DNA of 32,000 nucleotides, from contig CAKUIA010000003.1 in NCBI GenBank assembly GCA_934660865.1, positions 1-32,000 on the forward strand. The letters run 5' to 3'. Positions 7,730 to 16,093 of the stretch are shown in pieces. Below the pieces are notes generated by a model. It had not been told where the DNA came from. It was given only the letters and a program-made list of their open reading frames with translations, and searched no databases. Positions within the stretch are counted from its first letter, which is position 1. Each line of letters starts with the position of its first letter. This stretch comes from an uncultured Opitutales bacterium (GTDB lineage: Bacteria > Verrucomicrobiota > Verrucomicrobiia > Opitutales > Intestinicryptomonadaceae). Position numbers and translations under genes: made by a program.

Positions 7730-9814
7730 TTAAAGAGTTTTTGAATATCTTACATAATTGGTCAGAATTTCGTTAAATATAGAGGTTTTTCTGTCTACCA
7801 TTTGCTCTTTAAAATAGTCGCACAAATATTTATTTATTCTCACTTGTTGCGAAACGTCGTCTTTGGTAATGCTGTAGTAGTTATCGAAAGATTTGCTGTT
7901 TGCGGGGAACGTCGATTTTTGAAGGACATATATAATAAAAGCTCTTAGTTTTGCCTCGACGATTTTTTGATTGCCTTTTGCTTCGGGAAGAGAAGATATA
8001 AATTTTGTGTATCCTTGCGTGTAAAATCCGTTATTGCATGCATCTTTCGAACACCTGCTCAATACGGCAATCAACAAGTTGGCGTTATATTTGCAAATTG
8101 AACGGTATTCCGCTTGCTGTCTTTCGTATTCTTCCATAGTCATCGTTTGCCAAGCGGTATTTTTTAAAGTTTGTAGAGAAAGGAATTTTATGGGTATAAA
8201 TCTGTCGTAGCCCCGTGAATTTAAAAACATTGTGGCCTGTTCGTCCGAAAACGGCGAACGTTTCAAATCGGCGTTGCCTACAACAGCATTTAGGGAATCG
8301 TTAAAGATAATCTTTGTAAGCTTCGGGGTGGGCGGTTGCACTGAAATTGCACAAATATCTTTTATTTTTTCGTCTACCAAAAACGAATTTGAAGCTAGTG
8401 AAGTGAAATTCAAGTTGCTCGACTGTGCGTCTAAAGAAAACGCATAATTGTTTCTGAAAACATAGGCGCGGTTGTCGTATGCTCTTGTAGATGTTCCGTC
8501 AAGCATGTAGGCTACGCCGACTTTTGATATTCTCACGTCGAATAGCCTGTTCATATCAAGAAAATTGTTTTTTACGGGAAAAACGCATATGCCGCTAGAC
8601 GCATTCAATACCATAGATAAAGATGTATCGTCTGAAATTTTTTGCGCTTCGTCCAAATCCGGTATTTCGCCTATGTCTTCTGGCAAATTGTCTACTATAA
8701 ACCCGACAACCTTATATTTTTTATTTACTATCATTTTACTGCACGAAAGCGAAAGTGCGCTATTGTCGAACTTTGCGGGCAAAGAATCGGGTATAAGATA
8801 TTTATTGCCTAATATTACGGGTATTTTGTTTATCCTGCAAAGTATGCCTATTGTTGAACCGCCGCTACCGAAATCGCACTTAAATAGCACTTTGTTTAAA
8901 TCGTATTTCAGCTCGGTTTTATTGAACGCTGCTGGTGGCATTTTCTTTAGCTCTTCAAGCTGTTTTTCGAAATTGTCGGGGTATTTTTCCTGCAGCTGCT
9001 TTTTTACGTTTTCTACTTTTTCGTCTATTACATCGTATAACTTAAACTGCTTTAGTTCGGTATATTTGGAGCATAAATTGTTCAATTCTTCAAGGGCTTT
9101 GTTTGCGTCGCCCTGCGAGCGCGAAACGGCGGTTTGCTGTATTTTATTCCATACGGCGTCGTTATCTATTGCGGCGGAATTTCGGGAGCTAAAAAAGGCG
9201 CGCCATCTGTCGTAGTCGTCGGCCATTTGTTTAAAGTCGCTAATATTAAACTGCTTAAATACGTCGTCTATAAGCTTTCGCTCGGTTGGCGTTGCAGACT
9301 TTCTAAATTGATTATAGGTTATATAGCTTTGCCTGTTTACCTCAAAATAGTCCAGCTGGTTTACATAGTCGCCCTTGGCCTGCGTTTCGGAAAAGTTAAA
9401 AACTTTCATTTCCTCGAAACTTAGCGATTTTTTTATTTCGGCAAGTTTTAGATAGGCGGCAGCCTGCTCGTTAAACCAGGCTCGTTTCATTTCGGTATCG
9501 TAGTCTTGCCCCAGCTTTGAAAGGCCGTTTTTAAGATTGTTTAAAACTTCGGGCGGGAATTTTTGCTTTTGCTTGTGCGCAAAGTCGTTTATCAGCGAGG
9601 CGGCGGTTTCGGCAACCTTTTTTTTGATTGTTTCGCCGCTGTCTTTAACGGTGGTTTTTAAGTCGCGCTTGTCGGGTTTAGCTTCGTTTTGGTTTAAAAC
9701 TTCGTCGTAATAGTCGCGTTTTGGGTTATTGTTGCTTTTTTGCGGTTTGCTGCAGCCTGCCAGCAGCGCAAGCGCAAGAATACCAAGGCAAATAGAGGAT
9801 ATTTTCTTTGTCAT
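7730..9814 (-). CDS. Large orphan lipoprotein, 694 aa, function unknown
   Basis: Lipobox signal MTKKISSICLGILALALLAGC|SK. The first ~300 aa are K/E/Q-rich and helical. The middle is beta-rich with degenerate trypsin-like spacing (see findings). I recognise no family. Confidence 0.8.
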   Translation of the reverse strand: MTKKISSICLGILALALLAGCSKPQKSNNNPKRDYYDEVLNQNEAKPDKRDLKTTVKDSGETIKKKVAETAASLINDFAHKQKQKFPPEVLNNLKNGLSKLGQDYDTEMKRAWFNEQAAAYLKLAEIKKSLSFEEMKVFNFSETQAKGDYVNQLDYFEVNRQSYITYNQFRKSATPTERKLIDDVFKQFNISDFKQMADDYDRWRAFFSSRNSAAIDNDAVWNKIQQTAVSRSQGDANKALEELNNLCSKYTELKQFKLYDVIDEKVENVKKQLQEKYPDNFEKQLEELKKMPPAAFNKTELKYDLNKVLFKCDFGSGGSTIGILCRINKIPVILGNKYLIPDSLPAKFDNSALSLSCSKMIVNKKYKVVGFIVDNLPEDIGEIPDLDEAQKISDDTSLSMVLNASSGICVFPVKNNFLDMNRLFDVRISKVGVAYMLDGTSTRAYDNRAYVFRNNYAFSLDAQSSNLNFTSLASNSFLVDEKIKDICAISVQPPTPKLTKIIFNDSLNAVVGNADLKRSPFSDEQATMFLNSRGYDRFIPIKFLSLQTLKNTAWQTMTMEEYERQQAEYRSICKYNANLLIAVLSRCSKDACNNGFYTQGYTKFISSLPEAKGNQKIVEAKLRAFIIYVLQKSTFPANSKSFDNYYSITKDDVSQQVRINKYLCDYFKEQMVDRKTSIFNEILTNYVRYSKTL

Positions 9815-12359: not shown

Positions 12360-12451
12360 CGTGTATATTGCAAAAACCGCAAAGCGTTTTTGTATAGCTG
12401 CGGGCACAAAAAAAGCCCGCAAACCTTGTAGTCAAGCGGGCTATAAAACAA

Positions 12452-12534
<83 letters not shown>

Positions 12535-12949
12535 TAAATCGCTTATTTTTAGCGTATTTAGCAATTTATTAAGTACTTGCGACATTGCTTTTTTGAAATC
12601 TCTTTGCCGTCTTTGCCGTTTTTTATGTAAAAATACGGCAAAAATTGCTTGAAATTCTGCAACACTTTTTGCAGTGCTTTTGCTACACTAAAAAGAACAA
12701 TTTTTTATTAGCGGCAAGTATCCAAAAATTAACAAAAAAAGCAAGCCATTTTTAGTAAGATGTCGAGATTTGGACGGAAAAATGTATATATCGGCAACAT
12801 TGGAAATCGGGTAGATGGGTTTTATCTTAAACCAGTGTTTTAACGAAATCTACAAGTTTGCAAAAGAGTAGTAGTTGCTTTATATACAATTTTGGAATAT
12901 CCATAGCAAATGTTGCTAACAGTAAAAAGACACAGTGTTTGTGTAAAAT

Positions 12950-12985
12950 AAAAGAGAGCGATGTTTAGCTACAATGCTCTCTTTT
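12950..12985 (-). terminator. Probable terminator of the toxin-antitoxin operon
   Basis: Starts 3 nt after the stop at 12988. Stem AAAGAGAGC/GCTCTCTTT (12976..12984 and 12951..12959), 16-nt loop, then a T-rich tail (TTTTATTTT) on the minus strand. The loop is large, hence moderate confidence. Confidence 0.5.
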
Positions 12986-12987
12986 TG

Positions 12988-13431
12988 TTAATCAATATTT
13001 GGCAGTAGATTTTTGATTTGCATAGAAACAGTTCTGCTATTTTTTACACATCTGATTACTTGTCGTAATGTATCTTTAGACAATGTTGCGTCTAGGCATT
13101 TTAATTCGTTGCAGTCAAATTTTTCTTTTATATATTTTACGTTAAAATATTTGACGTCGTTGCAGTTTATGTATGTAGGCTTTGAAAGAAATTTTTCGCT
13201 TCCCAATGAAATTTCCGCAATCGTATCAGCGCCATACATACTGCGCAACTGTGCAACGCGTTCTACTCTAGAAGAGGCAACCACAAGTGCGAAAGAGTCT
13301 CCATACGATGGATTGTCGTTTAATATTATTATATAGTGGGGCTCGTTGCTTGTTATGCTAGCTATATGCCCATAGAGCACGGAGCCACAACGCAATACTA
13401 CCTTTCTTAAGAGATTGAAGTTAGATGACAT
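12988..13431 (-). CDS. Putative toxin partner of the Panacea antitoxin, ~147 aa, family unassigned (possible MazF/PemK-like fold)
   Basis: Its ATG (13431..13429) is embedded in the antitoxin's last codons (GATGTCATCTAA), an 11-nt overlap that implies translational coupling. The block order GSVLYGHI / PHYIIILNDNP / FALVVASSR / PTYINCNDVKYFNVKYIKEKF / LSKDTLRQVIRCV parallels MazF/PemK strand order. This is inference only. The track start at 13458 is an alternative. Confidence 0.6.
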   Translation of the reverse strand: MSSNFNLLRKVVLRCGSVLYGHIASITSNEPHYIIILNDNPSYGDSFALVVASSRVERVAQLRSMYGADTIAEISLGSEKFLSKPTYINCNDVKYFNVKYIKEKFDCNELKCLDATLSKDTLRQVIRCVKNSRTVSMQIKNLLPNID

Positions 13432-14053
13432 CGTTGTGCTCTTTAAAAAAGTTATCAAATGATTCCGATTCGTCTATCATTTCCAAAATAACTTTTTTAT
13501 TCTCTTCGGACATATTAAAGCAGGGATTTAGCCCAGCTGGAGGCTCTTCCAAGAAGTCCCGAATATCCATAGGAATGGACGTTTTTTTTCCGTTTGGATT
13601 TTCGCTCGAAAGAATATCCTTTTCGTGTTTTTTCCACTCGGGATATTTGTGGGTTATGCTTACCAAATCAAAAGGTTTTTCCTTGCCGAATGTATCATAG
13701 GCAAATGATAACGCTTCAATATCGGACTCGGACAGAGCGGAAAAATCGATATCTTTTTTTATGAGCTTTAGCGTTTTCCCTCCGTTGGAAAGCTCAAGAA
13801 CATCGGAAGCAAATGCACAGGCATCTATCGGTAGCCAATCTTCGCTAATGTTTGCAACATTCAAAGTGTTCGACGCGACAGGGCCATAATTCATCGCTTT
13901 ATATGTATCACCCGATACGGTTCTACCGTATTTTCTTAGGTGGTATTTATCTGCAAAATACAATAGCTTTATGAGTAATATTTTACTAGTTTCGCAGTTG
14001 TATTTGCTGAGCAACCACGCCAAAATTTCAACAGCTTTTGTATAATCAAACAT
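13421..14053 (-). CDS. Panacea-domain (DUF4065, SocA/GepA-like) antitoxin, 210 aa
   Basis: ILLIKLLYFADKYHLRKYGRTVSGDTYKAMNYGPVASN and LSESDIEALSFAYDTFGKEKPFDLVSITHKYPEWKK match the DUF4065 signature (KLLYfa...G.pl..d.f.A...GPV ... tH...pW). The C-terminal extension is acidic. AAGGA lies 9 nt before the ATG. Confidence 0.8.
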   Translation of the reverse strand: MFDYTKAVEILAWLLSKYNCETSKILLIKLLYFADKYHLRKYGRTVSGDTYKAMNYGPVASNTLNVANISEDWLPIDACAFASDVLELSNGGKTLKLIKKDIDFSALSESDIEALSFAYDTFGKEKPFDLVSITHKYPEWKKHEKDILSSENPNGKKTSIPMDIRDFLEEPPAGLNPCFNMSEENKKVILEMIDESESFDNFFKEHNDVI

Positions 14054-14079
14054 TTATGAAAATCCTTTATATTGCCAGC

Positions 14080-14108
14080 ATTGTTTTTTACTGGGCTATT
14101 TTTGTCAA
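14080..14108 (-). promoter_or_regulatory. Candidate sigma-70 promoter of the antitoxin-toxin operon (TTGACA-N17-AACAAT)
   Basis: The minus strand has a perfect -35 TTGACA (14108..14103), a 17-nt spacer and a weak -10 AACAAT (14085..14080), about 26 nt upstream of the ATG. Confidence 0.35.
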
Positions 14109-14351
14109 GAGATTTTAGTTTTATTGGGAGTACTTCGTTCTTTTTAAGTCGGAAAGATTTTACTGGGTTTTAGAACATGAATTTACTCAAAAAGTTCCAA
14201 AAAACTGTAAAATTGCCTAGAGCGTGCACATGCAATATTGGATACGAGGCAAATTCGTAAGCTTCAAGATTTGCAAACTAGCATCTTGCAATCGGCTACA
14301 TTGACGCAAGTATGTTCGCCGTAAAAATTATGTTAGTCAAAAATTTTTCAC

Positions 14352-15479
14352 TTAGTAGGTAAGTGTTTTGTAGTAGCGCGGAACGCGCTTGGTTATGGAG
14401 CACAGGGCTTGGGCTGCAACTATGGACATGCTTCGGCAATAGTCTTCTATCTTGATTTCGTTTTCGCCAGATTTGCCTATTAAAATAACTTCGTCGCCTT
14501 CCTTTATGTCGTCAAGGCCTGTTGTGTCCAAACAGGCTTGGTCCATAGAAACCCTGCCTATAATCGGCAAAAACTTGCCCCTTACCAAAACCTTTGTTCG
14601 GCCGCCTGCGTTGCGTGTCATACCGTCGCCGTAGCCCGCCGAAATAAGGGCAATTCTGGTGTCTTTTTGCAATGTGTAGGTGTTGCCGTAGCCTACCGAC
14701 GCCCCTTTGGGCAGCCATTTTATTTGGCTTATTGCGGTTCTAAAATACATAATTTGTTCGGGCTTAAACTCCCTTAATATGGAATTTTCTTCGGGTGCAA
14801 CCCCGAACAAAATAAGGCCAATTCTTATCGCCGTAAGGAAATTTTCGGGCACGCGCGAATAGTCGAAAATATCGCCGTGGTGAATGTATATTTTTTTGTA
14901 TTTTAAAATTTCGGCGGCGTCTTTCAAAAAACCGGCGTCTACTTCTATGTCGTGCTCTTTTGCGCCGCTGCCTGTGCCCGACGCGCAAAAGGCCTCGAAC
15001 TTAAGGAATTTTGCCGAAAGCAGGGCGTTTAGCATTTTTCTCGCCTCGGCGTTGTCGGGTATAAGAGGTTTTTCTAGCGGCAGGCGCATGTGAACTGCCA
15101 GCGTTTTGCCGAGTTTTTCGCCCGCCTTTTCAAAGCGTTCAACTTCCTCGAAAGTTGCAAGCACGGGGGTAATGTCGTTTTCGAAATAGAAAGATTCTTC
15201 GCCCACAATGGAGGGGCTCATAACTATAATCTGCCAGCCAAGGCCGACGCTTCGCACCTGCATGGCCTCGGCAAGGTTGGTTACGGCAAAGGCGTCGGCG
15301 CCGCTTTCCATAAGGCGCGCAACCGCCGCGCTAATGCCTATGCCGAATGCGTCGGCCGGAACAAAAGCTATGTAGCCGCGTTCCCTCGGTAAAAAACGCC
15401 TTACGTTTTTAAGATTGCGCTCTAGTGCGCACAAGTCTATCTGAACGGAACACCTTAAATGTGTGCTTGCGAATTCCAT
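14352..15479 (-). CDS. Alanine racemase family protein lacking the PLP-binding lysine (probably not a canonical Alr)
   Basis: Collinear with Alr over the full length: VQIDLCALERNL, RIGLILFG, GASVGYGNTY, LISAGYGDG, IGRVSMDQ. However the VVKANAYGHG motif reads FVPADAFGIG, and the DTGMxRxG and SHFA motifs are absent. Confidence 0.8.
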   Translation of the reverse strand: MEFASTHLRCSVQIDLCALERNLKNVRRFLPRERGYIAFVPADAFGIGISAAVARLMESGADAFAVTNLAEAMQVRSVGLGWQIIVMSPSIVGEESFYFENDITPVLATFEEVERFEKAGEKLGKTLAVHMRLPLEKPLIPDNAEARKMLNALLSAKFLKFEAFCASGTGSGAKEHDIEVDAGFLKDAAEILKYKKIYIHHGDIFDYSRVPENFLTAIRIGLILFGVAPEENSILREFKPEQIMYFRTAISQIKWLPKGASVGYGNTYTLQKDTRIALISAGYGDGMTRNAGGRTKVLVRGKFLPIIGRVSMDQACLDTTGLDDIKEGDEVILIGKSGENEIKIEDYCRSMSIVAAQALCSITKRVPRYYKTLTY

Positions 15480-16093
15480 TTTGCAAATTCCCTTTTAGAC
15501 AACAGCAATGCGTCGGGTATGTTCGAGTTTTGTTCGGTTAAAAGCCCGGGGGCTTTTTCGAGCGTTTCGAACAAGTCGGCAATGTCGTATTCAAATTCGT
15601 TTGTGTTTTCGGCAATGCTTTCGGCGTTGCGCTGTTTTATGAAATAGCAGTCGCCCAATTTTTCGCTTTCAAAGTCGGCTGCGGCAATTTCCTTGGGGGC
15701 GCCGCCGTTTGCGCAAATATTGTAGCAGCCTTTGCGCGAGCCGCAATAGAGCGTAAACGGCTCTTTTACGTTTTTGGATTTTGCCAGCGCATACAGCGTT
15801 TCGAACAGCCTAAAAGTTTTAATTTTTGCATTGTTTAAAAACGCCATTGTGCAGAACGAAACGCTTGCGCTGCGTATTCCCAAAACCGAGCCCGTGCCCT
15901 CGCAAAACCAGTATTGCGAAATGTCTTTCGGGGCAATCTCTGCCGCGGCAAAAAGCTCGTTTAGTATTGGGAAAAAGTTTTCGAGCGGCGTAGCTTGCCT
16001 TTCTATTTTTGCAACAAGGGCTTTGTCTTTATAAATTGCGGCTCTTATTGTGTACGACGAAGTGTCGGCAATTAAAATAGTTTGGTTGTTCAT
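15455..16093 (-). CDS. tsaB: TsaB (YeaZ)-like tRNA t6A biosynthesis protein, divergent
   Basis: ILIADTSS... (N-terminal ASKHA phosphate-1 strand), then EGTGSVLGIRSASVSFCTMAF in place of GPGSFTGLRIG. Size (212 aa) fits. The start overlaps the rpoN stop (TAATG). Confidence 0.65.
   Translation of the reverse strand: MNNQTILIADTSSYTIRAAIYKDKALVAKIERQATPLENFFPILNELFAAAEIAPKDISQYWFCEGTGSVLGIRSASVSFCTMAFLNNAKIKTFRLFETLYALAKSKNVKEPFTLYCGSRKGCYNICANGGAPKEIAAADFESEKLGDCYFIKQRNAESIAENTNEFEYDIADLFETLEKAPGLLTEQNSNIPDALLLSKREFAKWNSQAHI

Follow-up and report, generated by a model that had tools for sequence, protein, structure and literature searches.

A Panacea-domain antitoxin candidate and a toxin candidate of predicted MazF fold in a conserved two-gene unit beside a tRNA-Leu gene of an uncultured Opitutales bacterium

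The panA-panT locus

The window, i.e., the whole stretch of DNA that was analyzed, comprises 32,000 nucleotides from an uncultured Opitutales bacterium (contig CAKUIA010000003.1), and the subject of this study is a pair of overlapping genes on its minus strand. The first gene, panA (13421..14053, ATG start), encodes a 210-aa antitoxin candidate with a Panacea (DUF4065) domain, and the second, panT (12988..13431, ATG start), encodes a 147-aa toxin candidate for which a MazF/PemK fold was predicted using AlphaFold2 (AF2) and Foldseek. The pair is probably a toxin–antitoxin (TA) module in which a MazF-fold toxin, PanT, is neutralized by PanA. The ribonuclease (RNase) activity suggested by the predicted structure of PanT is somewhat less certain than the identity of the module.

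In the case of PanA, the match to PF13274 (SocA_Panacea) in Pfam scored 77.2 bits, above the gathering cut-off of 25.7 (E = 2.3e-21), and covered the complete model (1-113/113), which placed the Panacea core at residues 27-141 (13631..13975, minus strand). PanA also matched PHROG phrog_1281 (E = 7e-25), and its open reading frame (ORF) contains KLLYFADKYHLRKYGRTVSGDTYKAMNYGPV and ITHKYPEWKK. The NCBIfam SocA equivalog, NF047745, was matched by residues 17-62 alone and scored 22 bits against a cut-off of 190 (E = 1e-4). PanA carries no N-terminal accessory domain. At its other end, the core is followed by a C-terminal extension of 69 residues (142-210; 13424..13630, minus strand), which is acidic, with an isoelectric point (pI) of 4.5, and 4.1 for residues 160-210, the whole protein having a pI of 4.94. 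The extension is conserved in the PanAs that are encoded next to toxins of the 147-aa type (...PEWKKHE...MDIxDF..D....CFEL..E.K...), and D166 and F167 were invariant among 8 diverse sequences. Moreover, the pI of PanT was 8.98, compared with about 4.1-4.5 for the tail, and the two are thus complementary in charge. The extension is accordingly regarded as a candidate toxin-neutralizing tail.

The 3' end of panA and the 5' end of panT overlap by 11 nt (13421..13431, minus strand). The panA ORF, which ends with TAA at 13423-13421, extends 11 nt into panT, whose ATG is at 13431-13429; read as its reverse complement, 13421-13432 is GATGTCATCTAA. A 156-aa version of panT starting from a TTG at 13458 was rejected, and the ATG was favored because all close homologues start at the equivalent Met (MSSNF/MSPNF). 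A Shine-Dalgarno-like AAGGA (14063..14067, minus strand) was read directly in the sequence 9 nt 5' of the panA ATG; as its reverse complement, 14054-14069 reads TAAAGGATTTTCATAA, after which the ATG follows. Directly 3' of the panT stop codon, an intrinsic terminator (12941..12985, minus strand) was found, consisting of a 10+3 bp hairpin with arms at 12950-12964 and 12971-12985 and a U-tract, which reads UUUUAUUUU on the minus strand. The minimum free energy of the hairpin was -15.8 kcal/mol (z = -5.2), and an equally stable structure was obtained from 0 of 200 shuffled sequences. A candidate sigma-70 promoter, TTGACA-17 nt-AACAAT, is located at 14080..14108 (minus strand) with 10/12 matches. 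This AT-rich region contained four promoter-like sites, compared with 6.1 expected from shuffled sequences, and as this is no enrichment, the site is considered a candidate only.

The initial annotation of this DNA had described a 210-aa DUF4065 protein, a downstream ATG within an 11-nt overlap, a partner of about 147 aa, a promoter candidate, and a closing hairpin. The domain with its quoted signatures, the overlap, the hairpin, and the partner ORF with all five motifs quoted for it were recovered, on the minus strand, which the annotation had left unstated. In the case of the promoter, the TTGACA site is present, but the lack of enrichment limits it to the status given above.

Family, conserved residues, and predicted fold of PanT

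PanT had no match in Pfam, NCBIfam, or PADLOC; Pfam gave just a chance match to EcoRI_methylase (E = 0.027), and neither of the two proteins matched any PADLOC-DB 2.0 model at E<=1. A match was obtained to PHROG phrog_19071, a family of unknown function (E = 1e-4). Among 5.8 billion proteins, a word-indexed search returned 5 relatives with 61-99% identity, and an exhaustive HMMER search, for which the profile of these 5 close relatives served as the query, yielded 330 representatives (50% clusters) at E<=1e-3, with 56 of them at E<=1e-10. The relatives were nearly all 135-160 aa long, typically about 145 aa, and matched from end to end. A further profile search yielded 176 more proteins, none with a Pfam domain, and all names listed for them were 'hypothetical protein' or blank; their named sources were metagenome-assembled genomes of Ignavibacteriaceae, Dehalococcoidia, Sericytochromatia, and Minisyncoccia. 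Other relatives came from Melioribacteraceae, Pseudomonadota, and Dyadobacter isolates, and the relatives as a whole were almost all metagenomic. A genome scan gave 5 hits with narrow patterns of the close subfamily, a number that says nothing on the rarity of the family in isolates, and a tblastn search of the PLSDB plasmids with a central family member gave no match.

Ten residues, numbered here as in the PanT of the window, were conserved among 122 diverse members of the family. His32 was present in all 122, followed by Cys90 and Ser132 (120/122 each), Asn91 (119/122), Gly16 (118/122), Thr70 and Thr/Ser53 (115/122 each), Lys140 (112/122), Asn38 (110/122), and Ser54 (104/122). The PanT of the window keeps all ten of them, and this pattern of conserved polar residues would be typical of an enzyme.

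The structure of PanT was predicted by AF2 from a 120-sequence alignment and without templates, giving a predicted local distance difference test score (pLDDT) of 90.5 and a predicted template modeling score (pTM) of 0.86. A model built on just 6 sequences had a pLDDT of 67.9, too low for use, and was set aside. When the model was compared with the PDB using Foldseek, 49 of the top 50 matches were endoribonucleases of the MazF family (MazF/EndoA/MoxT), with a best E-value of 1.3e-5, a probability of 1.00, and target-normalized template modeling scores of 0.65-0.75. The matches included B. subtilis MazF (EndoA/YdcE), S. aureus MazF, B. anthracis MoxT, M. tuberculosis MazF-mt1, -mt3, and -mt6, D. 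radiodurans MazF, and E. coli MazF. The remaining match was the endoribonuclease toxin CptN (4rmo) at rank 35 (E about 1e-3), and no CcdB structure was found among the top 50. Similarly, the top matches in BFVD, which holds predicted structures of viral proteins, were an 'Endoribonuclease' and a 'PemK-like protein'. The predicted structure thus shows the SH3-like barrel of the MazF/CcdB fold, and its strand order (β1-β7, then a C-terminal helix) matches the topology of MazF. Extra helices were predicted at residues 57-66, 98-106, and 137-140.

The link to MazF was also examined at the level of sequence profiles. PemK_toxin (PF02452) was the only Pfam family that recurred among the relatives of PanT, matching 15 of 122 members in one set (best E = 4.6e-5) and 13 of 120 in the other (best E = 1.5e-4), all below threshold; the two sets share just the PanT of the window and its four closest homologues, and the next commonest Pfam families matched at most 5 relatives. 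These recurrent matches, together with the predicted fold, bear out the cautious remark in the initial annotation that the partner is reminiscent of MazF/PemK. Sequence searches of the PDB with the 6-sequence and the 122-sequence PanT profiles gave chance matches alone (E>=0.1). Using hhalign, the 122-sequence profile (A2) aligned with a MazF/Kid/ChpBK profile with a score of 27.7, an E-value of 3.9e-4, and a probability of 35.6%, while the reversed profile, 20 column-shuffled profiles, and the unrelated PanA, which served as controls, scored 7.7-15.5 (E>=0.066). With the less diverse A3 profile, the E-value was 0.053. The MazF/Kid/ChpBK profile consisted of five sequences, among which B. subtilis MazF alone was checked against the PDB, with one residue corrected. 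A large homology search seeded with a MazF profile returned near-identical NdoA sequences alone and no diverse PemK alignment, and the profile–profile test therefore rests on the five-sequence profile. Because the sequence evidence is real but weak, the argument for MazF is carried by the fold.

In MazF, the catalytic pair is formed by Arg25 and Thr48 in the B. subtilis enzyme (Arg29 and Thr52 in E. coli), and Glu78 and Gln79 contact the RNA. In the extended hhalign alignment, which is of low confidence, Gly16 of PanT fell on Gly6 of B. subtilis MazF, Glu30 on Glu20, and Cys90-Asn91-Asp92 on Leu77-Glu78-Gln79. In its N-terminal half, likewise of low confidence, Ser53 fell on Thr48 and His32 lay one position from Arg25, and the PanT family has no conserved Arg there. 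From this alignment, we infer that the conserved polar residues of PanT may lie at or next to the functional positions of MazF, with a different chemistry.

Recurrence and genomic context of the pair

The neighborhood was inspected wherever a PanT homologue had a contig, and loci for which an ORF list alone was available were judged by Panacea sequence motifs. In 14 of 14 other loci, two of them viral, a Panacea gene was located immediately upstream of the homologue on the same strand. The paired loci included those of close homologues (L001-L007), one in another Opitutales genome (L008), one in Dyadobacter (L009), and distant metagenomic ones (L013/14, L015, L017, L019-22, and L023-25), while the viral loci were found in Marinitoga camini virus 1 (L018) and in an IMG/VR contig (L028). 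The spacing between the two genes ranged from -11 to +10 nt; L001-L005 had the same -11 overlap as the window, and the others were between -8 and +10. Marinitoga camini virus 1 is a temperate phage of Thermotogae, in which the pair (KP836355.1, 28057-29155) consists of UF08_38, the PanA, and UF08_39, with an 8-nt overlap, both annotated as hypothetical. UF08_38 matched PF13274 (E = 1e-19), and UF08_39 matched the PanT family profile with 99.6% probability (E = 2e-24). The pair of the window is thus a conserved TA-like bicistron. It also has the layout by which Kurata et al. (2022) recognize PanAT pairs, with panA and its partner on one strand and no more than 100 nt apart; here, the two overlap by 11 nt and are both on the minus strand.

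The flanks of the paired loci were unrelated to each other. A conserved third element 3' of the toxin gene was considered and rejected, as the downstream sequence was unconserved except for a terminator of each locus's own; in L001 and L003, for example, a hairpin of their own is found at the corresponding position. The unit was therefore taken to comprise two genes. One homologous protein of 242 aa (P0014) reads as the C-terminal part of a PanA (…LTHLCPEWKKHE…) joined in frame to a complete toxin domain, which could be a natural fused TA or an artefact of gene calling or a frameshift on a truncated contig. In Dyadobacter sp. CY347 (L009), a 144-aa ORF (8883-9317, plus strand) whose N-terminus looks HTH/XRE-like (helix-turn-helix) lies upstream of the pair. 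This ORF had no Pfam match at 1e-3 and may encode a regulator separate from PanA, which has no DNA-binding domain of its own. Genes for DUF3800, HipA_2, ORF6N, an N6_N4 methyltransferase, and a ResIII helicase were observed in the flanks of L013, L014, L017, and L019-L022, and a DDE transposase gene in that of L015, so that several distant pairs adjoin genes of the defense or mobile-element type.

In the window, the two genes are the only ones on a low-GC stretch (12535..14351), where the GC content was 0.31-0.41, compared with 0.47-0.55 in the flanks. This cassette is located between a tRNA-Leu(taa) gene (12452-12534, minus strand) and the alanine racemase gene alr; farther out, rpoN is found on one side, and an FAD (flavin adenine dinucleotide) oxidoreductase gene on the other. 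The 65%-identical pair of L008 is also found in a GC trough next to a tRNA-Leu(taa) gene (L008, 9000-10800), in the opposite orientation relative to the tRNA and with different other neighbors, and the 70%-identical pair of L001-L005 has still another context. As the contexts differ among the window, L008, and L001-L005, horizontal mobility is indicated, and the low-GC stretch looks horizontally acquired. Around the cassette, no att-like direct repeat matching the 3' end of the tRNA-Leu gene was found, and no integrase either; an Rfam search of the whole window gave two tRNAs and nothing else.

A 14-nt inverted repeat (12442-12455 and 14077-14090, 93% complementary) brackets the whole cassette. 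Its arms overlap the 3' end of the tRNA-Leu gene and the candidate -10 region, respectively, and it is probably due to chance in AT-rich DNA. Elsewhere in the window, an ORF of 694 aa (7730-9814, minus strand) and one of 212 aa (15455-16093, minus strand) had no Pfam match at E<=1e-3; the latter overlaps the start of the alanine racemase gene and abuts rpoN.

Proposed mechanism, alternatives, and relation to known systems

The combination of a Panacea antitoxin and a MazF-like toxin has been known and validated since 2022. Kurata et al. (2022) described several clusters of MazF-like PanTs (T5, T6, T8, T25, and T29), mostly annotated as hypothetical, and representatives without a CDD hit were matched to EndoA/PemK/MazF by HHpred at about 99.5%, with CcdB also in the lists at 98-99% (PMC8832971). 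T5 is broadly distributed (Bacteroides, Prevotella, Photorhabdus, Chlorobium, Dyadobacter, and Planktothrix), and T29 includes an Opitutales species (PMC8832971). The MazF-like PanTs of P. moraviensis and B. ruminantium were toxic, were rescued by their PanAs, and specifically blocked the incorporation of 35S-Met; moreover, PanA and PanT of P. moraviensis formed a stable complex, and neutralization by PanA was independent of ClpXP and Lon (PMC8832971). The pair of the window is thus a further example and no new category, and the initial annotation went too far in calling the partner unassigned and possibly a new PanT family, since such clusters without a CDD hit had already been listed and two of them validated.

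In the preferred reading, the locus would be a chromosomal type II PanAT module on a small low-GC stretch next to tRNA-Leu. Both genes would be transcribed into one minus-strand mRNA that ends at the intrinsic terminator, and the 11-nt overlap would couple the translation of panT to that of panA. PanT would consist of a MazF/PemK SH3-like barrel with extra C-terminal helices, and would most likely be a ribosome-independent, sequence-specific endoribonuclease that cuts single-stranded RNA and arrests translation. Its putative active site would lie at the position of that of MazF with other residues, namely, His32, Ser/Thr53-Ser54, and Cys90-Asn91, of which Cys90-Asn91 would be placed at the RNA-recognition strand of Glu78/Gln79 and His32 within one position of Arg25. 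In MazEF, the RNA groove of MazF is occupied by the C-terminal region, or tail, of MazE. PanA would bind PanT directly, its acidic C-terminal extension likely filling the RNA groove of the toxin, and the Panacea core would then act as a scaffold or a sensor. Ernits et al. (2023) found that PanAs neutralize via the Panacea core or via appended elements such as C-terminal helices, and neutralization by C-terminal extensions has been documented for the C. doosanense PanA (PMC10440598). The biological role of the module may be the stabilization of an island or prophage, or abortive phage defense.

Several points weigh against a PanA-neutralized MazF-fold RNase. PanT of the window did not match PF02452 (PemK_toxin) even at E<=1, and the profile–profile support for kinship with MazF is weak with both profiles. 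As the canonical Arg of MazF appears to be replaced by His, an RNase chemistry of PanT is not guaranteed. Of the 25 PanT candidates of Kurata et al., 8 were not toxic in E. coli, including the MazF-like one of Flavobacterium xanthum, and in the MazF-like pair of Chryseobacterium bovis (T5), PanA itself was toxic (PMC8832971). In addition, no published experimental test of the 147-aa PanT family was found in the literature.

Four other explanations were considered. A toxin of MazF/CcdB fold might be neutralized by PanA and still have a target other than RNA, as a gyrase poison like CcdB or another protein-binding inhibitor. The MazF and CcdB folds are homologous, CcdB appears in the HHpred lists of the MazF-like clusters, and the catalytic Arg appears to be absent from the PanT family; however, the top 50 structures comprised 49 MazF RNases and no CcdB, the invariant polar set (His, Ser/Thr-Ser, Cys-Asn, Ser, and Lys) would suit an enzyme better than a binder, and the two validated MazF-like PanTs block translation. 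This explanation is therefore judged unlikely. An equally low probability was given to a conserved pair that does not arrest growth in its host, in which case PanT would lack toxicity or be a degenerate MazF-fold protein that serves some other function. The non-toxic PanT candidates, one of them MazF-like, would agree with this, and the PanT family is known here from its sequence and predicted structure alone. Against it, the strict pairing, the spacing of -11 to +10 nt, the patchy distribution in unrelated flanks, the low-GC island, and the presence in a temperate phage form a signature of TA or defense systems, and the catalytic-type residues are all intact in the PanT of the window.

A type VI system similar to SocAB, in which PanA would be a proteolytic adaptor delivering the toxin to ClpXP, is suggested by the Panacea domain, which is the domain of SocA, and by the weak NCBIfam match of PanA to SocA. 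It is considered very improbable, as that match stayed far below its cut-off, the partner has a predicted MazF fold and is not SocB, and the neutralization reported by Kurata et al. was independent of ClpXP and Lon and involved direct complexes, including that of a MazF-like PanT. The remaining explanation, abortive infection as the primary role of the same parts, is compatible with the PanA-neutralized toxin module, and we regard it as a real but minor possibility. In that case, the Panacea core would detect a cue from the phage and free the RNase. Ernits et al. (2023) hypothesize a sensor role for the Panacea domain and connect TA networks with defense systems (PMC10440598); furthermore, family members were found in Marinitoga camini virus 1 and in the IMG/VR contig, and some homologues adjoin genes for a methyltransferase, a ResIII helicase, DUF3800, or HipA. 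On the other hand, no PADLOC model matched either protein, the patterns used retrieved a single locus from 2.9 million viral contigs, and the neighbors in the window are housekeeping genes (alr, rpoN, and the FAD oxidoreductase gene). A PanA-neutralized MazF-fold toxin module thus remains the preferred reading.

Compared with the MazF-like PanATs of Kurata et al., the pair of the window has the same order, with a Panacea antitoxin without an N-terminal domain first and the toxin second, and a small gap or overlap between them. In both, the toxin is 'hypothetical', lacks a match in domain databases, and is connected with MazF/EndoA/PemK by structure or profile methods, and the distribution is patchy and mobile-looking, including phages. 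The differences are modest. Insofar as the clusters are known here by description, the proteins of the window's family are about 145 aa long rather than about 110 aa and carry extra helices; an invariant His appears to take the position of the catalytic Arg of MazF, and an invariant Cys-Asn is present; and a specific acidic C-terminal extension is common to the PanAs of the family. With MazEF, PemIK, and Kis-Kid, the pair shares the predicted toxin fold, the order of elements, the antitoxin-first bicistron, and a basic toxin with an acidic antitoxin tail, whereas its antitoxin is a Panacea protein and not an AbrB/SpoVT or ribbon-helix-helix protein such as MazE, PemI, or Kis, and its toxin, which has added helices and gave no match to PF02452, appears to carry Pro-His-Tyr instead of the catalytic Arg-Pro motif. 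SocAB of Caulobacter crescentus (type VI) has the Panacea/DUF4065 domain in its antitoxin, but the toxin of the window is unrelated to SocB, and direct inhibition rather than delivery to ClpXP is expected. In the case of the type III systems CptIN and ToxIN, CptN is a distant structural match to the toxin, far weaker than MazF; their antitoxins are repeat RNAs, whereas that of the window is a protein, and no tandem repeat array flanks the toxin gene.

Whether the PanT family is one of the T clusters of Kurata et al. is about evenly balanced. A distinct MazF-fold clade outside those clusters, which would be paired with Panacea only, use a His32 and Cys90-Asn91 site instead of the Arg of MazF, and be neutralized through the family-specific acidic tail of PanA rather than its Panacea core, is a tentative suggestion that we consider rather doubtful. 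If it is true, this site could give a cleavage chemistry or RNA target different from that of classical MazF.

A fold and a likely activity, both based on the structural model, can thus be proposed for a family that Pfam, NCBIfam, and PADLOC leave unannotated and PHROGs list as of 'unknown function'. The PanT family, with about 330 clusters at 50% identity, is tied to Panacea across diverse bacteria and at least one temperate phage, and it adds a well-defined case for Panacea as a promiscuous antitoxin. It also provides material for two questions, namely, whether a MazF-fold toxin may work with His instead of the catalytic Arg, and whether PanA may neutralize such a toxin through its C-terminal tail or its Panacea core.

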